Assembly: GCA_963695875.1 (NCBI GenBank)
Contig: CAVOID010000014.1
Coordinates: forward strand, 1 to 64,000
Direction of reading: 5' to 3'
DNA length: 64,000 bases
Source of the DNA: an uncultured delta proteobacterium
Lineage (GTDB): Bacteria; Desulfobacterota; Syntrophia; Syntrophales; UBA2185
A model generated the notes under the pieces. That model was given only the letters and a program-made list of their open reading frames with translations, searched no databases and had not been told where the DNA came from. The position numbers were made by a program, and so were the translations under genes. Each line of letters opens with the position of its first letter. The first letter of the stretch is position 1. Of the stretch, positions 2,557 to 55,376 are shown piece by piece.

Positions 2557-3834
2557 ATGGACATGGATATAGGAATGGTAGGTATTTTTATCGCTGCGTT
2601 GGTCATCATGGCAATCATTATCTACATCAAGGCCAACATGAAGATCTGCGAGCCCAATGAGGTGATGATCTTTTCCGGGCGGCAGTTCAAGGAGAAGGAC
2701 AAGGTAGTGGGGTACCGTGTGATCAAGGGAGGAAGAGGGTTGAAGATTCCCCTGATTGAGACGGTAAGGACCATATCGTTGAATACGATGCCCATCGAGA
2801 TGGATGTAACAGGCGCCCTCACGAGAGGGACGATTCCCGTAAATGTGAAGGCCATGGCGAATGTCAAGATCGCCGGCACGATGGAAGACGGTCTGGGGAA
2901 TGCCATCGAGAGATTCCTCGGGAAGAGCGCTACGGCCATTGCCACGACGGCCCGGGAGATCCTGGAAGGCACATTGCGCGGCATACTGGCGACGATGCAG
3001 CCGGAAGAAGCCAATGCGAACCGGATAGCACTGGCCCAGCAGGTTGCCAAAGAGGCGCGGGAGGACATGCAGAGGCTGGGGCTTGTCCTGGATACGTTCA
3101 AGATCCAGGAGATCAAGGATGACAAGGGTTATCTGGAGGCCATTGCACGGAAGAAAAACGCAGAGGTTCATCGTGATGCCAGGATTGTTGAGGCGGAATC
3201 CAATGCGGAGGCGAGCAAGAAGGAAGCGGAGGGGAAGAAGGTTGCGGAGATTGCGGACATTGAGGCCCGGCAGTCGATCGTGCAGTCGGACATGAACTTC
3301 CGGGTGCAGCAGGCGACGTGGAAGGCTGAGGCGAACCGCGCCGAGGAGAAGGCCAAGATTGCCGGTGAAATCTCCCGTATGGAGGAAACGAAGACCCTTG
3401 AGGGAAAACGGGTCGAGACCAACAAATTGAAGTATCAGGCTGAAGTCGTCATCCCCGCGGAAGCGGAGAAGGATGCCCAGCAGATGAAGGCCATCGGAGA
3501 AGCCGCCTTTACCTTTGAAGAGGGCAAGGCCAAGGCGGATGCCCTGAAGCTGCTCCGCGAACAGTGGGAACATCCGAACAGCAAGGACCTGTTCATGATC
3601 CAGCTCCTGCCGGAACTGGTAGGACATGTGTCCAAGGTCATCGCATCCAATCTCAATGTGGAAAGACTGACCGTGGTCGACGGCGGCAGCGGGAGCGGCA
3701 GTGGCGGAGGTCTCCCGCACCTCGTGGGAAACCTGGCCGGGTCTGTGAACTCCTTCTTTGAGCAGATGAAGACCCTCACAGGCCTGGATCTGGCCAAGCT
3801 GATGGAAGAGCGCTACAAGGTGTCAGCTAAATAA
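2557..3834 (+). CDS. flotillin-like SPFH/band-7 family membrane protein
   Basis: RBS AGGAGG at 2546-2551 (aggagg ttatgg ac ATG) precedes ATG 2557. N-terminal TM helix, SPFH core and a long Ala/Glu/Lys coiled-coil tail (flotillin/YqiK-like). The intact 460-aa ORF in the track starts at an upstream alternative start. Confidence 0.8.
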   Translation: MDMDIGMVGIFIAALVIMAIIIYIKANMKICEPNEVMIFSGRQFKEKDKVVGYRVIKGGRGLKIPLIETVRTISLNTMPIEMDVTGALTRGTIPVNVKAMANVKIAGTMEDGLGNAIERFLGKSATAIATTAREILEGTLRGILATMQPEEANANRIALAQQVAKEAREDMQRLGLVLDTFKIQEIKDDKGYLEAIARKKNAEVHRDARIVEAESNAEASKKEAEGKKVAEIADIEARQSIVQSDMNFRVQQATWKAEANRAEEKAKIAGEISRMEETKTLEGKRVETNKLKYQAEVVIPAEAEKDAQQMKAIGEAAFTFEEGKAKADALKLLREQWEHPNSKDLFMIQLLPELVGHVSKVIASNLNVERLTVVDGGSGSGSGGGLPHLVGNLAGSVNSFFEQMKTLTGLDLAKLMEERYKVSAK

Positions 3835-3867
3835 TAAATAGCGTAACAGCAAACCACTTCACATCAT

Positions 3868-3924
3868 CCCCTTCCTGAGAAACCTTCCCTGCAGAGGGAT
3901 TTAAGGGAAGGGGATTCTTTTCTT
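3868..3924 (+). terminator. rho-independent terminator after the flotillin gene
   Basis: ccccttcc...ggaagggg stem with an inner ccctgcagaggg hairpin, followed by attcttttctt. Confidence 0.55.
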
Positions 3925-4284
3925 ACGTTCCCTTTCCATCAATATATCTTATAGCATAAATAAAAATTCTTAATCAGATTTCCATCTGGAAGCAGCCACA
4001 CGACCCTTCAGTACATCTCTGATCCTTTTGCGGATCAGGATTGATAAGAAATCCTTGATTCTGGCCATTCCCTTTAATGCGCCAAGCTCTTCTTCGTAGA
4101 GGGACAAGATCACCTCGACAGTGTCAAATACTGAATTATTTTATTTCTACTTACCTTTCTGATCAAATATTCGTACTGGATTTCTTTGAGATCATGCTAT
4201 AATCTTTTATGGTGATACTTTGAATGTCAGAGTTTAGTGAGATCGGGTCAGTAGTTTTATCAACATTTCATAAGATTTTTCTCT

Positions 4285-7983: not shown

Positions 7984-8067
7984 ATGGCTGATATCATTGT
8001 TCTTATGATCGGATTGTTTCTGATCGTCTATCTCTTTTTTGTGGTACTTCGTCCTGAAAAATTTTAA
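7984..8067 (+). CDS. kdpF: K+-transporting ATPase subunit F (27-aa hydrophobic peptide)
   Basis: ATG gct gat... encodes MADIIVLMIGLFLIVYLFFVVLRPEKF*, a typical KdpF C-terminus (LRPEKF), immediately upstream of kdpA. Confidence 0.7.
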   Translation: MADIIVLMIGLFLIVYLFFVVLRPEKF

Positions 8068-8113
8068 GTTTGCTCACAATATCTCAAGTTGCTTAAGGAT
8101 AGGAGAAGTTAAC

Positions 8114-9921
8114 ATGAACATTTATGGCTGGATTCAATTAACTGTCTTCATCGGCATCCTCCTTTTGCTGACGAAGCCGATAGGAGTTTATCTCACACAG
8201 GTTCTCGATCCTGAGGGAAAGACCTTTCTCGACCCGGTGCTTCGCCCTGTGGAAAGGCTGTTTTATCGGCTTTTCGGACTTGACCCGAAAAAGGAGCAGG
8301 CCTGGCAGGAGTATGCCCTGTCCCTTCTTGCCTTCAGTCTGGTGAGTCTTTTATTGACTTACGTTATCCTTCGCGTTCAGCATCTCCTGCCTCTGAACCC
8401 CCAGGGATTCGGACCGGTAAGCGAACACTTGGCCTTCAATACAGCGGTCAGTTTCACAACCAATACCAACTGGCAGAGCTATGGTGGAGAGTCTACTCTT
8501 TCGTATTTTTCGCAGATGGTCGGCCTTGTTTTCCACAACTTTACCTCCGCAGCCGTCGGAATTGCCGTGGCTGCCGCTCTGGTAAGGGGTATTGCCCAGC
8601 AGTACACTACCCGTACGATCGGCAATTTCTGGGTCGATCTTGTCCGTGTAAATCTTTATCTGCTGCTGCCGATCTCCCTTGTCTATGCCCTCTTTCTTGT
8701 ATCCCAGGGAATGATCCAGAATTTCAAGCCATACGATACGGCACAGCTTGTGGAACCCGCCGTCATTCAGGTCGCCAAGAAGGATACAGCAGGTCAGGAG
8801 ATCATGGATGCTCAGGGAAAGCCGGTCATGGAGGATCAAAAAGTTGAAACACAGACGATTGCGCAGGGACCGACGGCATCTCAGGTGGCGATCAAGATGC
8901 TGGGAACAAACGGCGGTGGATTCTTCAATGCCAACGCCTCTCATCCCTTTGAGAATCCGACACCGCTTTCCAATTTTTTGCAAATCCTGTCTATCTTTCT
9001 CATACCGAGCGGACTGACCTATTACCTGGGCCGGATGGTGAAGAACCAGCGGCACGGCTGGACAGTCTGGGGGGCGATGCTTGTTCTCTTTCTCGCAGGA
9101 GTCCTGACATGCTGGTGGGCGGAAGCAGCGGGAAACCCGAGGATGCATGCCTTGGGTGTGGATGCCAGTCGGAGGGCAACATGGAAGGGAAGGAAGTCCG
9201 CTTCGGGATATTCGGTTCCGCCCTCTTTGCCACCGTGACGACGGATGCCTCCTGCGGCGCCGTCAATGCGATGCACGATTCCTTTACGCCTCTGGGAGGC
9301 CTGATCCCGCTCTTCAATATGCAACTGGGCGAGGTCATCTTCGGCGGTGTAGGGGCCGGCCTTTACGGGATGCTCGTTTTCGTTTTACTGACGGTATTTT
9401 TAGCAGGACTGATGGTCGGGCGCACGCCTGAGTATCTGGGTAAAAAGATCGAGGCCTATGATGTGAAGGTCAGCGTATTGTTTGTGATGGTGCCTGTTTT
9501 TACCGTCCTGGGATTCACCGCCTGGGCGGCGGTGAGCGCCTGGGGTTTGGCCGGACTGAATAATACGGGCCCTCACGGTTTTAGCGAAATACTCTATGCC
9601 TTCTCATCGGCTGTCGGCAATAACGGCAGCGCCTTCGCCGGACTCACTACCAATACTTACTGGTACGACACAACAATGGGCATCGCCATGCTGCTGGGCC
9701 GCTTTTTCATGATCGTCCCGGTGCTGGCCCTCGCGGGCAGCCTGGCACAGAAGAGGCAGATCGCGACAAGCGGCGGCAGTTTCCCCGTTTCCGGCGTTAT
9801 GTTCGCTATTCTCCTCCTCGGCACCGTTCTCATCGTTGGCGCCCTGACGTTTCTCCCGGTACTGGCGCTGGGTCCCATTGTCGAGCATCTTTTGATGACC
9901 GGATCACAGATTATCTATTAA
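8114..9921 (+). CDS. kdpA: K+-transporting ATPase subunit A; one frameshift near 9170 (ccc to cc)
   Basis: RBS GGAG then ATG 8114, [15 protein letters not shown].... Homology continues from ORF 8039-9238 into ORF 9109-9921 at ...[12 protein letters not shown]. Confidence 0.9.
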
Positions 9922-44280: not shown

Positions 44281-45423
44281 ATGGACTTTAAACTGACAGA
44301 GGAACAGGAACTGATTCGCCAGAACATGCGGGAATTTTGCAAGAAGTATGTGGACCCCATCGCTGTGGAAATCGACGAGAACAGCCGCCACCCCGCAGAG
44401 TTGTTTCAGAAGCTTGCCGAGGGGGACTGGATGGGCATGCCCATTCCGCAGGAATACGGCGGTGCCGGCGCAGACCAGCTGACTTTCGTCATTGCGGTGG
44501 AGGAGCTTTCCCGGTCCTGCGCGTCCACCGGGTTTACCGTATCGACTCATGCGGGCATCGTGTGCATGATGCTCCTTCTCTTCGGGACAGAAGAGCAGAA
44601 GAAGAAATTCCTGATCCCCCTGGCCAAAGGGCAAGCACCTGGGGGCCTTCGCCCTGACCGAACCCGGAGCGGGCACGGACGTGATGGCCGCTGCCGCTAC
44701 CGCCGTAATCGACGGCAACGATTACGTCATCAATGGAACCAAGACCTTCACCTCCAACGGCCCAACCGCCGGCACGTATCTCGTCTTTGCCTGGACGGAC
44801 AAAGCAGCAGGCCGGAAAGGCATGAGCGCCTTCATCGTCCCCAGGGAAGCCCCCGGTATGAGAGTCGGGAGAACATTTCAAGAAGATGGGGCTCAGGTCA
44901 TCTCAGACATCCGAGATGATCTTCAAAGACTGCCGCGTGCCCAAGGAAAATCTGCTGGGAAAAGAAGGAATGGGTCTCCAGATGGCCATGACCGGCTTTG
45001 ACCATGGCCGGATCGGGATCGCCGCCCAGTGTGTGGGCATCCTCCAGGCAGCCCTGGATGAATCCATCCGATATTCCAAGGAACGCGTCCAGTTCGGCAT
45101 CTCCCATCGCCCGCCATCAGGCCATTGCCTGGATGATCGCCGACATGGCAACGGATCTGGCCGCCGCCCGATTCCTCACCTATCATGCCGCCTGGCTCAA
45201 GGATCAGAAGCAGCCCTTCAGCAAGGAAGCCGCCATGGCCAAACTCTATGCATCGGAGGCGGCGATGAAACACACCATCAAGGCGGTCCAGATCCACGGC
45301 GGATACGGCTACTGCAAGGGCGCCAAGGTGGAGCGGCTGATGCGCGACGCCAAGATCACGGAAATCTACGAGGGCACCTCGGAAGCCCAGCGCATGGTGA
45401 TTTCCGGAAATGTGCTGCGCTAA
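44281..45423 (+). CDS. acyl-CoA dehydrogenase (second paralogue), multiple frameshifts
   Basis: RBS AAGGAGG then ATG 44281 ([14 protein letters not shown]). Homology continues through ORFs 44281-44919, 44681-45001, 44886-45491, 44998-45423 and ends ...[18 protein letters not shown]. Confidence 0.8.
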
Positions 45424-45638
45424 GGTTAACAGCATTGTTTCCTTGCCGGAGTATCACGAATGCATTGAAACTTGTCATTCGTCTGGCTTGACCAGAAAGA
45501 TCCAGTAAGTCTCCCTTTTACAAAGGGAGATTTAGAGGGATTTTACAAAGGAAATAACAAATCCCCCGGCCCCTTTAAAAAAGGGGGTGACTTAAATCTG
45601 ATTTTCACAACTTGATGATCTTGAAAGGTGAACAGTTT

Positions 45639-46407
45639 ATGCCCACTATCATCGCCTGCTTCAAATGGGTCGTCGATGAAGCCTACATCCGGCGAGCGCC
45701 ATCCGGCGATCTGGATTTCTCCTCAGTCGATTACAAGATCGGTGATTATGACCGCAATGCCATCGAAGAGGCCGTCCGTCTGAAAGACAACCCTTGGCGG
45801 CAGTGCCATCGCCATCACCGTCGGCGTTCCCGAGGCAACGAAAGGCATCAAGGATGCCCTCTCCCGGGGAACGGACCAGGCCTACTTCATCGCCGATGCA
45901 TCGTTCGGTAATCTGGAACCTTCCCAGACCGCGGCCCTCCTGGCAGAGGTCATCCGCACACGGATTCAGCCCTACGACCTGATCATCTGCGGCGAAGGTT
46001 CCAGCGACCTCTACGCCCAGCAGGTCGGCCCTCGCCTGGCAGAAAAACTGGGGATACCCTGCATCTCCTTCGTCCAGAAGATTTCTATCGACGGGGATCA
46101 ACTCATTGCGGAGCGGCGTGTTGAAGAAGGTATCGAAGTCATTGCCGCACCCCTGCCTGCCCTGGTGACGGTTCTTCCCGACATCAATGTTCCCAGGATA
46201 CCGGGAGTTAAGGACACTCTGATGGCTTCAAAAAAGCCCGTTGTTACAATCAAAAAGGATGAACTGTCACCTATTGGTGAGGCCCGTCTGCAAACCATCA
46301 GTCTCAGAGCGTCACGTATGGAACGGACCTGCGAGAGGTTCGGAACAGACGCCGCGGAGATCAACCGCTTCGTTGGGTCCCTACGGAAGAAAGGCGTCAT
46401 CGGCTAA
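45639..46407 (+). CDS. electron-transfer flavoprotein beta subunit, second copy (frameshift near 45790)
   Basis: MPTIIACFKWVVDEAYIRR...DYDRNAIEEAVRLKD, then ...DLIICGEGSSDLYAQQVGPRLAEKLGIP in a second frame. Confidence 0.8.
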
Positions 46408-46417
46408 AGGAGAACAT

Positions 46418-47366
46418 ATGGCTGGAGTCTGGATTATTTCGGAAAACCGTGAGCAAGCCCTGGAACTTTTAATATTGGCCGCGAACTTGCCGAGAAGATG
46501 GGAACGAACGTTTCCGCGCTTCTCTCGCAGGATCGTGAACGGGCGCAAGACTATATCGAAGCACGGAGCGGACGAGGTTCTGATTCTGCCCCCTCTTGCC
46601 GGTGATCAGTCCATAGATGCTTACATCCCCATTATCGTTGAAGAGGCAAAAAAAGATGATCCTGATTTGATCCTTATACCCGCCACAGCGAGAGGAAAGG
46701 ACATGGCCGCCCGCATCGCATCCCGCCTGGACACAGGCCTATGCAGCAGTTGTATGTCCATTGCCTTTGATGAGGCAAGCAAAACTTTGGTGATGGAGCG
46801 TCTGGCATACGGAGGCGCTGCCGTGCAGAAGGTGATCTGCACCACCCGGCCCGCGATGGCCACCATCCCGCCGCGGACATATGAGCCTGCCATGGCAGAG
46901 GAAGGACGGCAAGGACAGATTCGGGAGCTCCCGGCACCTCCCCCCTCAGCGGTAAAGGTCCTGGAGAGAAAGGTAAAAGAACGGGTAGCGAAAGACATTA
47001 CGGAGGCACGGGTTATTGTCTGTGTGGGAAGAGGTATGGAGAAGAAGCGAGGATCTGGCTCTTGCCCGGCAGTTGGCTGAGGCCCTGGGCGGCGAAATCG
47101 CCTGCACGCGGCCGATTGCCGAGGAGTATCACTGGCTGCCCGAAGAACTCTGCATCGGGCTTTCCGGCGTGCAGGTGAAACCTGATCTTTATTTAGGCAT
47201 CGGTGTTTCCGGACAGGTCCAGCATGTCACCGGTATCCGCAATGCCAAGGTGATCGCTGCCGTGAACAAAGATGAGAATGCCCCCATTTTCAAAGCCGCC
47301 GACTTCGGCATCGTCGGCGATCTCTATGACGTGCTGCCAAAACTTATTACCGAGTTAAAAAAGTGA
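46418..47366 (+). CDS. electron-transfer flavoprotein alpha subunit, second copy (frameshifts)
   Basis: MAGVWIISENREQALELL... C-terminal FAD motif PDLYLGIGVSGQVQHVTGIRNAKVIAAVNKDENAPIF. Confidence 0.8.
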
Positions 47367-48121: not shown

Positions 48122-48704
48122 CGGGCGCCGCTCCCGAAGGAGCTGCAAACCGGGCAGGTCTCCCCGGATAAGAACGTGAACTGTCGCTACACAACCGCAG
48201 CATTTACCCTATCTCCCGAATCCAGGGCTTTGTCATGTTGTGCTGACTTGCCCGGAGACTGGGCCTTGTATGCTGTTTCTGTTCGTCGGCTCATAGCTTT
48301 GCGCTCCGGCTTCCTTCGGACGGTCCCTCGCGGTTCCGCCCTTGCCTTCGGCTAGTACTTGTGTCAATGTATCATGACATTGACAGGATTCACGTACAGG
48401 GGACTTTCACCCCATAAGTTCACGCCCATGCCGGGCGTACACATAATCACTTCAGCGGATGGCCAATAGCCGCCGCTGATTTTTTCGCCAGACCAGATAG
48501 CCACGAGGAATTACCATGCATACACAGACTTACCTGAAGACATTTTGGTACCTTGAACAGCGACCCCAAGTATTTGTAGCCATGAGTTTTGCACCTCAGT
48601 ACAGCAATCCTTTCAATCAAGTTATGTCCTTCGGCTAATCAATCGCCAGTCTGCACTCCAATTAGCAGTGGGCTATCAAAAATAAGAAAAAGGTGGGAGG
48701 AAGA

Positions 48705-49874
48705 ATGAAGAATTTGAGATCTTATTTACTGATTGCAAGTATCGTAATGGTTTTGCTCTTTTCCAGTTATGCCTCTGCATCTTGGCAGATCCAGTATTAT
48801 GGGGAAGCGGCACGGACGTTTGGTTCCGCTCCCCGGGGGAACTTCTCCACTCGTTCTGCATGCGAAGCTTACTGGAGATCCTCGCCCAAGTTTGAGAGAA
48901 ATAATTCCCGTTGCGTGGGCTCTGATACACCTTCTGTTCCTTCCGGCAGTCTGGGTCCATCACAACAGATGGCTATTGGAATTGTCGGCAGCCTTTTCAG
49001 TAGCATATTTAGCGGAATGCTTGATGATTCGACTCCATCTCCATCTACAGATAATACTTATCGGGAACAATTGAAAATACAGCAGGAAGAACAACGGAAG
49101 AAGGAGATGCAAGCAGCTATTGATGCATGGAGGAATGCACAGGAGAAGGCGGCACAAGATGCTTTGAAGGAGCAGCAGAAAAAAAGAGAGCAAGGGGCAT
49201 TGCTTATTGGTAAAATGGATGGCGGTATTACCGGTGGTGGAGGAAAGCTTGAACCTATGTGGATAGCCCAGAAGCCAGAGCTCAAACCCATACAGCTTGG
49301 AGGGTATGACACTTCCAAACTCAAACCCATGGAAAGACTTCTTTGCACATCATATTTTTCAACCCGTGCCCTTGAGGAGACAAGAAAAGGAAACCGCGAA
49401 GGTGCAAGGTTCTTTAGTGAACAGTCTGACAAGGTGATGACTGGAGCAAAGGCTGATGTTGAATGCAAATTTCCTAAAATTCCGGATGTTCCAATGCCAA
49501 AAGCACAGGCAACTCAACAGATGGATTCAAAAAAATTTACAGCCCTTATGAAAGATTTTAATGTAAAGCTCAAAGAACTTCAAAACATTGAAACCGAGCT
49601 TAATAAAGTGAGACAGGAAAAGCAAACGGCAGAGGAAAATCTGAAAAAGATAGATGAAAAGATAACAGAGATAAGTAATCAGGTGCAATCCGCACAAAAA
49701 CCTGAAGAGAAGGCTCAGGCAGATGATCTTCTTCAGCAAGCACTTGCTGCAAGGTCAGATGCAGAAAATCAGGTAAACTCTGCAAAACAGAGTGAGCAGG
49801 AACTTTTGAATAAGACAAAGGATATGGCAAGGGATATAGATTCACAACTAAAATCCATTCAAAAGGGAGAGTAG
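48705..49874 (+). CDS. secreted coiled-coil protein, hypothetical
   Basis: RBS GGTGGGAGG then ATG 48705. Signal peptide, Gln/Lys/Glu-rich coiled coils. AT-rich gene (~42% GC). Confidence 0.6.
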   Translation: MKNLRSYLLIASIVMVLLFSSYASASWQIQYYGEAARTFGSAPRGNFSTRSACEAYWRSSPKFERNNSRCVGSDTPSVPSGSLGPSQQMAIGIVGSLFSSIFSGMLDDSTPSPSTDNTYREQLKIQQEEQRKKEMQAAIDAWRNAQEKAAQDALKEQQKKREQGALLIGKMDGGITGGGGKLEPMWIAQKPELKPIQLGGYDTSKLKPMERLLCTSYFSTRALEETRKGNREGARFFSEQSDKVMTGAKADVECKFPKIPDVPMPKAQATQQMDSKKFTALMKDFNVKLKELQNIETELNKVRQEKQTAEENLKKIDEKITEISNQVQSAQKPEEKAQADDLLQQALAARSDAENQVNSAKQSEQELLNKTKDMARDIDSQLKSIQKGE

Positions 49875-49900
49875 GTTAAAAATAGAACAGGAGATGAAGT

Positions 49901-51943
49901 ATGAAAAACCTTATTGCATTATTTTCAATACTTGCGATCTTAATTGTGCCGGCTGGCTGTGCAAGTGTAACATTACCGCCTTTAATGGATGCAGCCGATA
50001 GAGGGGATATTAATGCTGTAAAAGCTTTGCTGGATAAGGGAGCGGATGTGAATGAGTGGTATTATGGTACAGCCTTGATGCAGGCATCGAGTAAAAAGAA
50101 TGCCGACATGGTGAAACTTCTGATAGACAGGGGTGCCGATGTAAATGCGATGACTCAGGGAGGATCGTCCGCCTTGGGGATTGCGGCAGAATTCGGTCAC
50201 GCCGATATAGTGGAAATTCTAATTAATAAAGGTGCTAATGTAGATAAAGCTATAATGGGTTTGAAGAAAAGAGCTATCTCCGTTGCCAACTACCCCGATA
50301 TAGTTGCTAAAGTTAACCGCGGCATTGATCTAATTAATGAAATACAAAAAAACCTTCCGAATAAGGCTGGTTGGGCGTATTATTCTAATGGACAATATCA
50401 GGAGGCGATAAATTCATTCAAGCAGGCTATTAGCTTAGACCCATCTATCAGTTTTAATTTTAGAGGCCTTTCAGCATCTTATAATGCGTTAAAGCAGTAT
50501 GATGAGGCTATAACCGCAGCAAAGAGGGCGATAGAGCTTAAGCCTGATAATGCTAATGCTTACAGCGATCTCGGCATAGCGTATTCACATAAAAAACAGT
50601 TTGACGAGGCATTAAATGCTCACCAAAAAGCTATTGAGATAGAACCAAAAAATGCAACTCTTTACACCAATATTGGCAATTTATTCCTTCAGAGGGAAGA
50701 TTATAGCAGGGCGGCAGACAATTATAAAAAGGCAGCAGTACTGACTCCGAATGACACAAGACCCCTGTTTGCCCTTGCAAACACATACAGACAGATGGGC
50801 AGATACGATGATGCATTTGAGCCAGCAAATAAGGCAATTGCATTGATGACTATAACCGGAGTGGGCTTGGGAATCGCAATTGAGGGGGATTACCCCGTTG
50901 TGCGAAGACAAATAGTCGGTGAATCGGGACTAATAGAAGGACCCGCTAAAAGAGCAGGCATACAGGCAGGAGATAAAATCATCAAGATTGACGGCATACC
51001 AACAAAAAGGTGGGATATAAATAAGGTTATCCAAAATGTAAAAGGCTCAGAAGGAACACAGGTTGTCCTTACAATCGAAAGAAAGAACTTTGATAAGCCT
51101 ATAGAAAAGACACTTACAAGGGAAACGATTATCTTTAAAGACGCAGCTCCGCTTTTCGGTCTAAGAAGCCTTGCCAACAGAGAAAAAGGCAGGTTAGAAG
51201 AATCTTACAAAGATGCTGAAAAGGCATACTCCCTTGATCCGAATGACAGGTGGGCAAAGAGTGCTATGAGTATCGCGTTTATTGATAAAGGTAAATATAA
51301 CGATGCCCTAAATATCTTATCAACCATAAAAGATAGCCCCTTTGACCGCATATTTGAATCAATAGCCTACTCAAAACTTGGAGATATGAAAAAGGCGGTT
51401 GAGATGTATAGCTCAATTCAAGAAGATTATTTAGCTACCCAAAGTGCCGTGCGTCAAAGCTACAAAAAAACCCTTTTAGAATCTCTAAAGCCTTATGTCA
51501 ATGCCAGGAAAGACTCTGCGAAACTCCTTGAAAAAAAGAGTCAATACAGAGAAGCACTCAAAGAATATGCAGAGGCTCTAAAGGTTGCCGATGACAGAGA
51601 TGCGAAAGAGGTAAGAAATCGTGTTGCAGTGTTGATTAGAAACAATCCTTATCTTGCGGAACTCCCTGAAGAGGCAAGAAAGTATGCTTTAAGAGCAGAG
51701 GTCTTGCTTAAAGATGGAAATTTTAAAGAATCGCTGAATGAATTCAATTCTGCTATAAAGATAGCGCCATTTGCTCCTCAACTCTATTTCAACACAGCCC
51801 TTGTATATGGAGAACTGAAAAACTACAAATCAGCCAAAAGATATATGAACATCTATATTGACCTTTATCCCGCTGCACCAAACATCCGCCAGGTGAAGGA
51901 CGAGATTTACAAATGGGAATTTATGATGGAGAAAGGTAAATGA
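49901..51943 (+). CDS. lipoprotein with ankyrin repeats + TPR repeats + central PDZ domain
   Basis: Lipobox VPAGC; ankyrin repeats (DINAVKALLDKGADVN; ADMVKLLIDRGADVNA; HADIVEILINKGANVD); TPR blocks; PDZ (GLGIAIEGDYPVVRRQIVGESGLIEGPAKRAGIQAGDKIIKIDG). Confidence 0.7.
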   Translation: MKNLIALFSILAILIVPAGCASVTLPPLMDAADRGDINAVKALLDKGADVNEWYYGTALMQASSKKNADMVKLLIDRGADVNAMTQGGSSALGIAAEFGHADIVEILINKGANVDKAIMGLKKRAISVANYPDIVAKVNRGIDLINEIQKNLPNKAGWAYYSNGQYQEAINSFKQAISLDPSISFNFRGLSASYNALKQYDEAITAAKRAIELKPDNANAYSDLGIAYSHKKQFDEALNAHQKAIEIEPKNATLYTNIGNLFLQREDYSRAADNYKKAAVLTPNDTRPLFALANTYRQMGRYDDAFEPANKAIALMTITGVGLGIAIEGDYPVVRRQIVGESGLIEGPAKRAGIQAGDKIIKIDGIPTKRWDINKVIQNVKGSEGTQVVLTIERKNFDKPIEKTLTRETIIFKDAAPLFGLRSLANREKGRLEESYKDAEKAYSLDPNDRWAKSAMSIAFIDKGKYNDALNILSTIKDSPFDRIFESIAYSKLGDMKKAVEMYSSIQEDYLATQSAVRQSYKKTLLESLKPYVNARKDSAKLLEKKSQYREALKEYAEALKVADDRDAKEVRNRVAVLIRNNPYLAELPEEARKYALRAEVLLKDGNFKESLNEFNSAIKIAPFAPQLYFNTALVYGELKNYKSAKRYMNIYIDLYPAAPNIRQVKDEIYKWEFMMEKGK

Positions 51944-52731
51944 TAGGCAAGGGAAAAACAGGTATGTATATTCTACCAGTTCTCCTTTTGGTAATCTTTT
52001 GTGGTATCACTTACGCACAGGATTCCGATGTACAGAAGAATAACTGGCTGCTTGGCGTGATATTTAAGCTGGAAAGGATGAAGGACAATTCAGTGGCAGA
52101 TATTCAGAAATGCGAGCGTGAGATTCAGAAATCTGAAAGCACTATCAGAAAATCTGAAGATATTATAAGACAGGCACAACAAAAAGGTAATGCGCAGGCT
52201 GAAATGATTGCGCGTCAGGCGTTAACAACAGCACAAGAGGCAAAGAGAAAAAATGAGATACTGAAACAGGAGGCCGAAAAGAGAAAAAGTAAAGCAGAAC
52301 TGGCTAAAGCAAGCGTGAGCGATACGCTTGCAAAACAACTAAACCTGCCAGAGGAAACAAAAGAATCCTCAGCTAAAGACAATACAGGACTGACTTTGCC
52401 GCCTTATTTTGACGAGGGAGCGCCGCCGGTTGATTGCAATAAAGCATTAAAACAACTCGATAATCCGAACTGCAAATGTTTGGCTGCTAATAGGGCGCCT
52501 GTATGCCCTGGAAAAGGCATGAAATTGCCGCACGAAGAAGAAATAACTTATGTTTTTTACTGGAATATTGCATTTACTACAGAAGGCAGACATTACTTAA
52601 ATGATGGCGTTTATTTTGGAAAGCATGACTCCTACGATAAAGCATTTAAGGCTTGTCAGGAAGATGCTAAGAATAGAAGTCATGTGGATTTTGTAGATCA
52701 TGTTCAGAAAATTAATTGCATACCGCAATAA
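51940..52731 (+). CDS. secreted hypothetical protein with coiled coil and Cys-rich C-terminal domain
   Basis: ATGA overlap with the upstream gene; signal peptide; 8 Cys in the C-terminal 110 aa. Confidence 0.55.
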   Translation: MIGKGKTGMYILPVLLLVIFCGITYAQDSDVQKNNWLLGVIFKLERMKDNSVADIQKCEREIQKSESTIRKSEDIIRQAQQKGNAQAEMIARQALTTAQEAKRKNEILKQEAEKRKSKAELAKASVSDTLAKQLNLPEETKESSAKDNTGLTLPPYFDEGAPPVDCNKALKQLDNPNCKCLAANRAPVCPGKGMKLPHEEEITYVFYWNIAFTTEGRHYLNDGVYFGKHDSYDKAFKACQEDAKNRSHVDFVDHVQKINCIPQ

Positions 52732-52762: not shown

Positions 52763-54341
52763 CTATAGAAAACAGTACGGATCTTTCTCTCTGAAAATAT
52801 CGAGGCCGTGACTGTAAGCATTCGCAAGACAGCCCCCGCACACGTAACGAAGAGGGCATGACCGGCATTCGGCACATCCAGCGCGATAGCGACGCGCGAT
52901 TTCTGAGTCGTATATCTCCCCGATTCTCTGGTCGAATACGTTTCCTATGGGAGAAGGAAACTTCCTGCAGGCATGAACCTCGCCGTCGGCTAGAATGGCG
53001 ACGAAATTGAATGCGGCCCCGCAACCGAAGCCGGTACAGCCGCCAAAGGGTTCCAGACCTTTCCGATACTTGAGGATGTTGATGAGGTTATCCTTCAAGC
53101 CTAAAACAGGGTTTTTACCATAGGCCTCAAGGTACGCTTTCAAGGAAAGACATATATTCCTGCTTTGTCGGAAGTTCAAGGCTCGCCCCTTCACCCACCT
53201 TCGAAAGACGATTGAAATAAAAAACATCCGTCTTCCCGCGCAGCAATTCACCAAGGGGGATAACCTGGTGGATGTTGTCTTTCGTCACGGTGAGCATCAC
53301 CATCGTATAGACTCCCAGTTCACGGAGTATTTCGAGAAAACGCATGGATCTTTCGAAGTGACCTTCTCCCCGGATGAAATCATTGTATTCAGGCAAACCC
53401 TCCAGACTCAACTGAAAAAAATCGGGCTGCTGGATGGAACACAGTGCCTCAACCTGTTCACGGGTTGAGGGATTTCCCAGGACGGACAGGGTAAAACCAC
53501 GGTCAGCGGCAGCCTTGTATATGGATAGAAATTCCGGATGAAGAAGGGGATTACCGCCGGTGAATGATACCCGCCCCTTCACGTGGCGCTCCCGGCAAAA
53601 GATATCGAGGTCATCGATGATTGTGAGTGCCTGCTCAAGTGTCAGCGCGGATCGATCACTCCGGTCATAGCAGTGTTTGCAATGAAGGTCGCAGGCCTGC
53701 GTGATATGCCACTGAAGGACGAATACCGATGACGTAAGAAAGTGTTTGCTCGTGTCAGGTGATGCTTCGTCAAGATCGCGCCGGATACGTGATAGCGGTG
53801 CAATGATGATTCCTCTGTCCACGGCACGATCCATGGCCGCATCAACCGCGAAGATCGGCAGCGTGCCTATTCGCGCCACCTCCCGCCTGTCGATGCCCTC
53901 AAATATCATCTTGAGAATGAGGAGATCCTCCAGTGAGGCAGCCTTCATATGAAGGCCGCCGTCTTCCGGATATTTCCATATCAGGACATATTCGTTTCCC
54001 GGTTCCGGAGCCTGTGGAGATAGAGATGTCACATTATCCACAAGGTTTTTCCATTGAAGCTCAAGTAAAATGAGTGTGGGATTGATGGCCATCTCCTCCG
54101 GATCACCGGGTATGGATACACTATTTTCTTTTACCCGGAAGATATTCCATTCAAGGCGGGCAAGTTCAGCAAGAAATTCAGGAAGGCGGGCATGAGGACC
54201 AAAATAGCTGATGATTTCAGGAAAGTTATCCGGTTTGTTATTCAGGTCATGGCTGGAAATGATCTGCTGCCATATGTCGGGATCAAGAAGGGAGCGACAT
54301 CGGGGATAAATGGCTGCAATGTCACTCTTTGAAGGGTTCAT
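52763..54341 (-). CDS. radical SAM / SPASM-domain enzyme with ~190-aa N-terminal extension (RiPP-maturase-like); split by one frameshift near 53200
   Basis: ORF 53127-54341 has CDLHCKHCY (CxxxCxxC) after a 190-aa N-domain. ORF 52763-53254 supplies the SPASM Cys-rich C-terminus (GCGAAFNFVAILADGEVHACR...AGCAECRSCPLRYVCGGC). Confidence 0.85.
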
Positions 54342-54476
54342 CGATGCTTTTTTGAAACAGGCAAAGGATGGCGCATCTCCTATCGCACTCGTTTTTCACT
54401 TTATCTTCCTGCATGGTTTTCAGGGGAATGAACGCCTCAGTCCCTAAAAGCAATACAGGGGGGAAATTGTTTTTGA

Positions 54477-54626
54477 TAGTGCAAACTGCACTATTACTTT
54501 GTACCGCCTCAGCTGCTTCCCGGCTTAGCCGGCTGTTCCGTTGGGGTGCTACCTGCACCCGGTTTCGTACCGCTTCAGCTGCTACCGGGCTTGGCCGGTT
54601 GTTCTTTCTGGATGCCACCTGCATCC
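54477..54626 (-). promoter_or_regulatory. three SECIS-like hairpins, 14-15 nt downstream of each in-frame UGA
   Basis: GGATGC-AGGUG-GCATCC (54626-54610), GGGTGC-AGGUA-GCACCC (54560-54544), TAGTGCA-GUU-TGCACTA (54493-54477). The first two differ by a compensatory A-U to G-C pair. The loop GCAGGU...GCACC resembles the E. coli fdhF SECIS apex. Confidence 0.5.
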
Positions 54627-54748
54627 GGTTTCGTCCCAGTTCAACTGCTGGCCTTTTGCGCACAACCAGACACCATAAGAGCCGAACCGGAAATGAGGGA
54701 GGCCAGGCAGAGCCCTGCAAGAATCTTTTTCAGTTGATCACTGTCCAT
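54491..54748 (-). CDS. candidate selenoprotein: lipoprotein-signal peptide followed by three 22-codon repeats, each containing an in-frame UGA (putative Sec)
   Basis: RBS AAGGAGG + 5 nt + ATG (54748). MDSDQLKKILAGLCLASLISGSALMVSGC AQKASS-UGA-TGTKPDAGGIQKEQPAKPGSS-UGA-SGTKPGAGSTPTEQPAKPGSS-UGA-GGTK-TAA-TAG. UGA codons at 54643-41, 54577-75, 54511-09. Confidence 0.5.
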
Positions 54749-54912
54749 GTTAACCTCCTTAAACGCCAGTCCATCCTTTGCCTGTGTTATTATGAGGAAG
54801 TATTATTGATCCTGTCAAGGAAGATTTCGGTTCCAACAAACTTAGGAAAATGGTCTTGACAAATTGAAAGCTTTTGCATACACTGTAATACAATAATTAC
54901 AAGAGGTGCATC

Positions 54913-55131
54913 ATGAGTACAGCAATATCCATAAGATTACCGGAAGATTTAGCCAAGCAGCTCGACAATATCGCCAAAGAAACAGAGAGGCCTCGTTCCT
55001 TCATCGTACAAAAGGCCCTGGAGTCATACTTGGAGGACTATGCTGATCTCCAGGTGGCTCTTGACAGACTTCACGACAAAGCCGACCCTATCATATCCAG
55101 CAAAAAGATGAGGGAGTCTCTTGGCCTATAA
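54913..55131 (+). CDS. type II antitoxin, RelB/ParD-like ribbon-helix-helix
   Basis: 72-aa ORF MSTAISIRLPEDLAKQLDNIAKETERPRSFIVQKALESYLEDYAD... Confidence 0.7.
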   Translation: MSTAISIRLPEDLAKQLDNIAKETERPRSFIVQKALESYLEDYADLQVALDRLHDKADPIISSKKMRESLGL

Positions 55132-55376
55132 TATCGTTTACAAAAAATCTGTTTCGAGAGATTTGAATAAGCTTGCCAAAGCGGAAGCGGCTCGAATATT
55201 AAATCAAATTGAAAAGGTGCTTTTAAGAATCCCGAATCTTATCTATCCTTAAAAGGTAAATTTGCAGGACTGCGCAAATTCCGTATTGGTGACTATAGAA
55301 TAATATATGCCATATCGCGATATGATGTCATTATTTTCAGAATTGGTCACGGGAAAAGACCATTTAAAAAAGAATG
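55121..55376 (+). CDS. type II toxin RelE/ParE family (one frameshift: cctt versus ccttt near 55247)
   Basis: TTG 55121 overlaps the antitoxin 3' end. MAYNIVYKKSVSRDLNKL...RIPNLIYP / LKGKFAGLRKFRIGDYRIIYAISRYDVIIFRIGHGKRPF. Confidence 0.7.

Follow-up and report, generated by a model that had tools for sequence, protein, structure and literature searches.

An sbtA–sbtM cassette on a Syntrophales metagenome contig and a predicted recognition fold in the N-terminal domain of its maturase

Introduction

SbtA and SbtM, a precursor peptide and its radical S-adenosylmethionine (SAM) maturase, are said to have been predicted computationally as a family by Haft and Basu in 2011. In Geobacter (Trichlorobacter) lovleyi, studied by the Bandarian laboratory, SbtM converts the cysteine or selenocysteine (Sec, U) of a -Gly-Cys/Sec- motif to a thio- or seleno-oxazole with the loss of four hydrogens; the β-hydrogen is abstracted via a 5′-deoxyadenosyl radical, about three [4Fe-4S] clusters are used, and the product shows a chromophore at ~304 nm (PMC9204691; PMC11002830, PMC13638132). 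The β-carbon of the Sec or Cys is oxidised in the manner of the anaerobic sulfatase-maturating enzyme (anSME), and a ring is then formed with the carbonyl of the residue before it, which was Gly in the peptide studied, so that a 5-seleno/thio-oxazole results (PMC9204691). 5-Thiooxazoles are also made by systems of oxidative enzymes that depend on multinuclear non-haem iron (MNIO, DUF692) with DUF2063-RRE partners, where RRE denotes a recognition element for peptides that are made on the ribosome and modified after translation (RiPPs); their precursors carry signal peptides of the general secretory pathway, 16% of the Buf2 precursors having lipoprotein signals, and the products chelate periplasmic copper (PMC11626156, PMC12452194, PMC12668002). 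Here an sbtA–sbtM locus is described on a stretch of 64,000 nucleotides, hereafter the window, from an uncultured delta proteobacterium of the Syntrophales (GenBank assembly GCA_963695875.1, contig CAVOID010000014.1, positions 1 to 64,000).

The locus is very probably a two-gene RiPP cassette, in which sbtA encodes a peptide with three Sec residues, sbtM encodes a single polypeptide once one indel is removed, and the chemistry is that of thio(seleno)oxazole formation as known from the literature. The SbtA/SbtM pair is already known and, within the literature searched, is the sole selenium-containing RiPP system with described enzyme chemistry. What is added here is a structural assignment for the N-terminal domain of SbtM, statistics on the selenocysteine insertion sequence (SECIS) hairpins and on co-localisation, and evidence that the frameshift in sbtM is probably an assembly artefact.

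Gene layout and family assignment of SbtM

The whole radical SAM/SPASM gene occupies 54341..52763 on the minus strand and is spread over two frames because of one surplus base. From the ATG at 54341 an open reading frame (ORF) of 404 aa extends to 53127 and holds the motif CDLHCKHCY, while the cysteine-rich C-terminus lies in an ORF of another frame (53254..52763, minus strand), which a preliminary description of the locus had correctly recognised as carrying the SPASM Cys cluster. With one base deleted, SbtM becomes a protein of 525 aa that aligns with its homologues over the junction without gap. Frame 1 (53139..54341, minus strand) supplies residues 1–401, comprising the N-terminal domain (N-domain), a linker and the radical SAM core; frame 2 (52763..53137, minus strand) supplies residues 402–525, the SPASM domain, and a TAG stop. 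The CxxxCxxC motif, placed about 190 residues into the protein in the preliminary description, is present, but its actual position is residues 217–224 (C217/C221/C224; 53670..53693, minus strand). The SPASM cysteines are C435, C440, C458, C492, C495, C501, C504 and C523, spaced as C440-x12-G-x4-C458 and C492-x2-C495-x5-C501-x2-C504, then C523, plus C435. All radical SAM and SPASM cysteines are invariant in an alignment of 64 homologues, and PF04055 (Radical_SAM, 66 bits) and PF13186 (SPASM, 36 bits) both exceed the Pfam threshold.

The repaired SbtM matches TIGR04082, an NCBIfam equivalog entitled “thio(seleno)oxazole modification radical SAM maturase SbtM”, with 715.2 bits (cutoff 350; E = 4.6e-215), and residues 11–524 cover profile positions 1–516 of 516. 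The next-best family, the ACGX-system radical SAM enzymes, reaches 157 bits over residues 206–524 only. The call of a radical SAM/SPASM peptide maturase is thereby supported, and the profile search that had been proposed, with SbtM and anSME among the named candidates, selects SbtM. The anSME family model is absent among the 25 of 72 NCBIfam matches listed for the protein, and no sulfatase gene was found among the neighbouring ORFs scanned. The N-domain had been regarded as unassigned; it belongs to the family model, residues 11–197 alone matching profile positions 1–187 with 123 bits.

A database search returned 2971 homologues, the nearest being 97% and 91% identical, and many of them are already named “selenobiotic family peptide radical SAM maturase” or SbtM. 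The closest named relatives come from metagenome-assembled genomes (MAGs) of Syntrophaceae, at 74% identity. By its sequence, the gene in the window is a typical member of SbtM, a family already described and partly characterised. Further relatives come from MAGs whose labels read Nitrospirota/Thermodesulfovibrionia, Acidobacteria, Chloroflexota, Planctomycetota and Gammaproteobacteria (loci L014, L022, L050, L052, L054, L058, L067 and L074), a spread that exceeds the “Geobacter and Desulfobacteria” range of PMC9204691, with misbinning of MAGs as a possible contribution.

The frameshift in sbtM

The surplus base lies at 53138..53144 (minus strand), where the window reads GAAAGCG and relatives read GAAAGG or AAGGCG; removing one base from CTTGAAAGCG (about 53138-53144) makes both frames collinear with the homologues. 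The junction is GAAAGCGTAC in the window, GAAAGGTAC in a 97% identical metagenome contig (L002) and AAGGCGTAC in a 93% identical contig (L001), and the longer context reads CTTGAAAGCGTACC, CTTGAAAGGTACC and CTTAAGGCGTACC in the same order. The copies of sbtM in both contigs are intact, and the window copy has one extra base against each.

Three more genes of the window show similar splits, each falling into consecutive pieces of one profile on the plus strand: kdpA (8039..9238 plus 9109..9921), an acyl-CoA dehydrogenase gene (44281..44919 plus 44886..45491) and etfA (46241..47080 plus 47016..47366). The assembly thus appears to contain frequent single-base indels, and any split gene in the window needs to be read with caution. 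Since these three genes are broken alike and the close relatives are intact, the frameshift in sbtM is probably an assembly indel error, as had been suspected at the outset.

An alternative interpretation is that the frameshift is real, that sbtM is a recently inactivated pseudogene, and that any SbtA made stays unmodified. The surplus base does stand outside the homopolymer runs in which sequencing indels are usually found, and a single sequence of the source organism is available. Against this, frameshifts split at least three further genes within the same 64 kb, which points to indel errors of the assembly, and the two closest relatives have intact copies. The part of sbtM past the shift has no further lesion, retains every SPASM cysteine and differs from the intact relatives mostly at synonymous sites, with a ratio of nonsynonymous to synonymous polymorphism (pN/pS) of 0.20-0.25. 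We therefore consider inactivation unlikely, and treat SbtM below as one polypeptide.

The precursor SbtA and its expression signals

The precursor gene sbtA, of 84 codons, lies at 54494..54748 on the minus strand, the same strand as sbtM, and 152 nt separate the two genes; sbtM was rightly placed directly downstream of a peptide with UGA repeats. SbtA scores 45.4 bits against TIGR04081 (cutoff 30.5), and its leader, residues 1–26, matches this SbtA precursor model with E = 4.9e-12. The peptide reads MDSDQLKKILAGLCLASLISGSALMVSGC-AQKASS-U-TGTKPDAGGIQKEQPAKPGSS-U-SGTKPGAGSTPTEQPAKPGSS-U-GGTK, the portion up to the first Sec being MDSDQLKKILAGLCLASLISGSALMVSGCAQKASS, followed by U-TGTKPDAGGIQKEQPAKPGSS-U-SGTKPGAGSTPTEQPAKPGSS-U-GGTK. 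The in-frame UGA codons 36 (54641..54643), 58 (54575..54577) and 80 (54509..54511), all on the minus strand, are spaced by exactly 66 nt, giving three 22-residue repeats, and all three core sites fit S-S-U-x-G.

In the leader, a basic n-region, a hydrophobic stretch of 18 residues and the lipobox V-S-G-C29 make for a resemblance to a lipoprotein signal peptide. A strict lipobox is found in at least 50 of 69 SbtA sequences. A Syntrophobacteraceae-like subgroup (L041, L044, L049 and L069) has Sec at the position of the lipobox Cys (…LTFAASS-U-GG…), which raises the question whether Sec replaces the lipid-modified Cys there or signal peptidase I is used.

A consensus scan gives a sigma-70-like promoter candidate, TTGACA-18-CATAAT with 11 of 12 positions, at 54789..54818 (minus strand), a pattern match ~40 nt upstream of sbtA, and a putative AAGGAGG Shine-Dalgarno sequence precedes the sbtA ATG. 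The sbtA–sbtM spacer holds no obvious Shine-Dalgarno sequence ahead of sbtM. It contains an imperfect hairpin of ~20 bp (54408..54459, minus strand; z = -1.9 for the folded 166-nt spacer) with partial conservation and slight covariation, which may be an attenuator or a processing element, and a box CCATCCTTTGCCTG, kept in eight loci, about 25 nt before the sbtM ATG (about 54360-54385, minus strand). The hairpin and the conserved box together may control the ratio of peptide to enzyme.

An ORF of 163 aa antisense to sbtA (window 54368-54859, plus strand) is an artefact of the repeat-rich region, and the public gene call of L001 likewise shows a 173-aa antisense ORF (3477-3998, minus strand) where sbtA should be. 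Gene callers systematically overlook the selenopeptide gene. The annotation lesson of this locus is that sbtA is invisible to ordinary gene callers and that the maturase gene was broken by an indel.

SECIS hairpins and selenocysteine decoding

Each UGA of sbtA is followed by a SECIS-like hairpin on the minus strand that starts 14 nt past it: GGAUGC-AGGUG-GCAUCC at 54610..54626 for the first, GGGUGC-AGGUA-GCACCC at 54544..54560 for the second, and AUAGUGCA-GUU-UGCACUAU at 54476..54494, overlapping the stop codons, for the third. Their stems of 6-8 bp are singly weak (z = -1.2 to -1.8); the third is conserved across eight loci, with one compensatory UA-to-CG change. An Rfam scan of the sbtA region (54300-54900) gave no curated SECIS family and chance-level miRNA/CRISPR matches only, so the case was built on folding statistics, a structural criterion.

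For this purpose, 142 distinct UGA contexts were compared with 44 Cys-codon contexts in the sbtA genes of related loci. The mean folding energy of the 45 nt after UGA is -12.3 kcal/mol; it is -8.3 kcal/mol in the Cys-codon contexts (Mann-Whitney p = 4e-11) and -8.0 kcal/mol for shuffled sequences. Helix starts cluster 11-14 nt downstream of the UGA, and the apical loops are mostly AGGUA, AGGUG, GGU or GUU. The identity of the UGA codons as Sec codons is well supported.

The hairpins also seem to leave a mark on the peptide. In the sbtA cores (window 54494-54660 and loci L003-L082), the next modifiable residue follows at a median distance of 20 residues (mode 22) after Sec versus 7 after Cys, and a G-A-G-S-like motif, into which the SECIS loop GC-AGGU-R translates, comes after 73 of 143 Sec residues and after none of 44 Cys residues. 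It thus looks as if the SECIS RNA hairpins determine the peptide spacers between Sec residues. Paired UGAs only 2-3 codons apart were also seen (SSUSSU, U-N-G-U, U-N-U and terminal S-U-S-U, in L033, L021, L022, L054, L063 and L072); a single hairpin cannot keep the usual distance to both members of such a pair.

Genomic neighbourhood of the cassette

A scan of one genome per species gave 562 relatives of SbtM, and the neighbourhoods of 82 fetched loci and the window, 83 loci in all, were compared. About 70 of the 83 (69 by regular expression) have an SbtA-like ORF with the same leader directly upstream and in the same orientation, and the loci lacking it are mostly contigs that end upstream. 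The pairing of the enzyme with the UGA-repeat peptide, and the genome-neighbourhood comparison suggested as its check, are both borne out by this conserved co-localisation. In three loci (L045, L056 and L078) no SbtA-like ORF occurs within 900 nt upstream of the sbtM homologue; the precursor may lie elsewhere, or the enzyme may have another substrate.

The core consensus is S-[S/G/A]-[U/C]-[S/G/T]-G, and 64 of 69 precursors contain Sec, the other 5 being Cys-only. The residue at position -1 to Sec/Cys is Ser in 117 cases, Gly in 64 and Ala in 22. As S-S-U-x-G is the commonest form, the Ser before Sec in the window is no departure from the family.

No exporter, protease or selenium gene is conserved as a neighbour in the 83 loci, and no other family recurs in more than 10 of them; the apparent recurrent neighbour families are antisense ORFs inside sbtA and sbtM. 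Since there is no third shared gene family, sbtA–sbtM is a self-contained two-gene cassette.

One Desulfobacteraceae MAG (RPRI01) carries a near-identical sbtA–sbtM pair on each of four contigs (L005-L008), either as multiple copies or as unresolved strain variants binned as one. Downstream of sbtM, a convergent cluster at 48693-52731 (plus strand) encodes proteins of 393, 680 and 263 aa. The first has no Pfam match, a hydrophobic N-terminus and a coiled-coil-like sequence; the second has ankyrin, TPR and PDZ domains and a lipoprotein-like N-terminus; the third is without Pfam match. The convergent arrangement with this secreted-protein operon is as previously noted, the plus-strand ORF stopping at 52731 and sbtM at 52763. 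A tie between this 48.7-52.7 kb cluster and the locus does not hold: the cluster is not conserved beside sbtA–sbtM in the 83 loci and was rejected as a part of the system. On the other side, outside the cassette, window 54913-55252 (plus strand) encodes a ribbon-helix-helix antitoxin (72 aa) and then a shortened 43-aa ORF, which looks like a degraded or frameshifted ParE toxin. L001 has an intact 86-aa ParE toxin at the matching place (2963-3431), so that a toxin-antitoxin pair adjoins sbtA in both.

The proposed reaction

From the characterised chemistry and the anatomy of the two proteins, the following course can be proposed. Each sbtA UGA would be recoded through its own downstream SECIS hairpin, giving an SbtA with three selenocysteines, and the predicted RRE part of the SbtM N-domain would hold the conserved SbtA leader. 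The radical SAM cluster bound by C217/C221/C224 would cleave SAM to a 5′-deoxyadenosyl radical, which would take the β-hydrogen from Sec (PMC9204691), and one of two auxiliary [4Fe-4S] clusters in the SPASM domain would ligate or oxidise the chalcogen. The Ser before Sec would attack the resulting seleno/thio-aldehyde with its carbonyl oxygen and so close the ring, and a second SAM turnover would aromatise it to a 5-seleno(thio)oxazole, with a net loss of four hydrogens per site (PMC9204691, PMC13638132). We infer that all three S-S-U-x-G sites are modified, giving up to three selenooxazoles per peptide. The preliminary description had put forward the hypothesis that the enzyme acts on the Sec and Ser of the SS-U repeats; family chemistry upholds the first of these, while Ser would supply the carbonyl only.

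It is conceivable, though improbable, that the enzyme is SbtM by sequence and catalyses some other radical SAM/SPASM reaction on the Ser-Ser-Sec core, such as a sactionine- or ranthionine-like seleno/thioether cross-link, or only an anSME-like oxidation to a selenoaldehyde or formylglycine. The nearest solved folds are indeed those of the cross-linkers SuiB, CteB and SkfB and of anSME, and Ser precedes Sec here, as opposed to Gly in the tested GGUG peptide (PMC9204691). However, the equivalog score is double the cutoff over the full length, the -1 position varies freely among Ser, Gly and Ala with the same enzyme, and MNIO-made 5-thiooxazoles accept residues other than Gly at -1 (Lys-Cys-Gly, PMC12538549). 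These points argue for thio(seleno)oxazole formation.

The N-terminal domain of SbtM

In the predicted structure the folded N-domain spans about residues 5-178 and is followed by a low-confidence linker to about residue 205; the full-length model has a predicted local distance difference test (pLDDT) value of 87.6 and a predicted template modelling score (pTM) of 0.85, its nearest structures being SuiB and CteB, then SkfB, PqqE and anSME. The N-domain model shows two parts, a helical DUF2063-like part (about residues 5-72; 54126..54329, minus strand) and a C-terminal RRE-like part (about residues 88-178; 53808..54080, minus strand) with three β-strands followed by three helices, the winged helix-turn-helix arrangement of an RRE. 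The domain is conserved in the aligned homologues, with W24, N87, P88, W122, K144, E148 and R188 invariant.

Its best structural match is 3DEE (NGO1945), the founding DUF2063 structure, with 162 residues aligned and a score of 13.2. TglI (8HCI chain C), labelled “RiPP recognition protein” in the TglHI complex with its MNIO, follows with 11.0, and then come the RRE-containing regions of TbtB (8.6), MibB (7.3) and NisB (5.9), the lasso-peptide B1 proteins TfuB1 (7.0) and TbiB1 (6.1), the radical SAM enzyme TigE (6.0) and PqqD (4.6).

The sequence comparisons point the same way at levels below threshold. The window N-domain scores 22.1 bits (cutoff 142; E = 1e-4) against NF050145, the HvfC family RiPP maturation protein model (RiPP_RRE_HvfC). 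Among 39 N-domains of the family, 12 match this model (best 8e-6) and 8 match PF09836 (DUF2063; best 0.007), all of them sub-threshold, and there is one NGO1945_C match. A Pfam scan of the window SbtM gave no PqqD, the N-domain yielding a chance DnaX_C match only, and a profile search of the N-domain against sequences of the Protein Data Bank gave nothing below E = 0.4. As no curated threshold is reached, the assignment rests on the predicted structure, by which the N-domain is a DUF2063 + RRE module, the architecture of MNIO (DUF692) partner proteins; it would act like PME1, yet it is not classed as PME1. No DUF692 match was obtained among the neighbouring ORFs scanned, and the 83 loci show no recurrent neighbour family. 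The earlier suggestion of a substrate-recognition domain is supported by this predicted fold; the accompanying remark that it was no obvious canonical RRE is correct at the level of Pfam sequence models and not at that of the predicted fold.

A role of the N-domain in DNA binding or regulation, as a winged helix, is hardly credible and was rejected: “putative DNA-binding domain” is the old Pfam name of DUF2063, 3DEE was deposited as a “putative regulatory protein”, and some family members give weak sub-threshold matches to Sigma70_r4_2, MarR_2 and HTH models, but the second-best fold match is TglI, which accompanies the MNIO TglH and bears the annotation of a RiPP recognition protein, the leader-bound RREs TfuB1, TbiB1 and NisB are among the matches that follow, DUF2063-RRE proteins are required partners in peptide modification (PMC11626156, PMC12668002), and the domain forms one polypeptide with a peptide-modifying enzyme that has its substrate encoded next door.

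Export and possible function

SbtA bears a signal peptide of the lipoprotein type, and the cassette lacks a protease or exporter of its own. The product therefore probably leaves the cytoplasm by the general Sec/Lgt/Lsp route and is held outside by a lipid anchor, as its sequence and the analogy with bufferins suggest. Selenooxazoles there would bind soft metals, like the thiooxazoles of bufferins. The recognition fold, the lipoprotein-type signal and the missing exporter and protease lead to a testable hypothesis of function, an exported, membrane-anchored soft-metal ligand in anaerobes.

A bolder proposal, which we regard as possible and on balance doubtful, is that true homology links the N-domain with the DUF2063-RRE partners of MNIOs, and that sbtA–sbtM is the oxygen-independent counterpart of the bufferin/oxazolin systems, producing a lipid-anchored selenooxazole peptide that binds soft metals. 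The parallel may be drawn from the common recognition module, the 5-chalcogeno-oxazole product, a signal peptide that doubles as leader, and the lack of a dedicated protease or exporter. As a corollary, it may be the SECIS RNA hairpins, not the function of the peptide, that dictate the 14-22-residue spacers between Sec residues. If this holds, the mature product in strict anaerobes would be an extracytoplasmic selenooxazole peptide that binds copper or other soft metals. A literature search, which did not extend to the primary SbtM paper, found no statement of a link between the SbtM N-domain and the MNIO partners.

Several points weigh against the account of the cassette given here. As sequenced, sbtM is frameshifted and so possibly inactive in the source organism. 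No Sec-insertion genes and no tRNA-Sec occur within the 64-kb window. The characterised substrate carries Gly, not Ser, before Sec, where SbtA here has S-S-U-x-G. In sequence searches the N-domain falls short of the curated thresholds for DUF2063, HvfC and PqqD. A strict lipobox is missing from about a quarter of the SbtA sequences, and the lipoprotein and metallophore part of the proposal draws on sequence pattern and analogy.

Comparison with known systems

The closest system is that of G. lovleyi. Its SbtM belongs to the same equivalog from end to end, including the N-domain, with the same radical SAM and SPASM cysteines, and its SbtA is likewise an upstream precursor with in-frame UGA and SECIS and a leader of the same family, in a two-gene cassette. 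The window differs in its core, S-S-U-[T/S/G]-G in three 22-residue repeats instead of GGUG, and in the one-base frameshift of its sbtM.

With anSMEcpe (4K39), SbtM shares the radical SAM/SPASM core (template modelling score 0.66 on the target), and SbtM is proposed to begin as anSMEcpe does, with β-hydrogen abstraction from Cys and oxidation to a thioaldehyde. Unlike SbtM, anSMEcpe has no N-terminal recognition domain, ends at formylglycine after hydrolysis, and has sulfatases as substrates. Over the full length, the structures that match best are SuiB (5V1Q) and CteB (5WGG), with a Foldseek E of about 1e-14 and 17-18% sequence identity, and they resemble SbtM in having an N-terminal recognition domain, a radical SAM barrel and a SPASM domain with two auxiliary clusters. 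In contrast to SbtM, their recognition domain is a plain PqqD-like RRE without the DUF2063 helices, and their products are C-C or thioether cross-links and no azoles. TglI (8HCI), with 14% identity to the N-domain, is a separate protein beside an MNIO that excises the Cys β-carbon.

In the MNIO systems, which include bufferins, oxazolins, fontiphorin and bulbicupramide, the O2-dependent iron enzyme is separate from a stand-alone DUF2063-RRE partner (PME1/BufC/HvfC; 3DEE), whereas the window encodes an O2-independent radical SAM/SPASM enzyme fused to its predicted recognition module. The substrate residue of SbtA is mostly Sec, unlike that of the MNIO precursors. This comparison suggests that two unrelated catalysts may have converged on, or exchanged, one substrate-recognition module.

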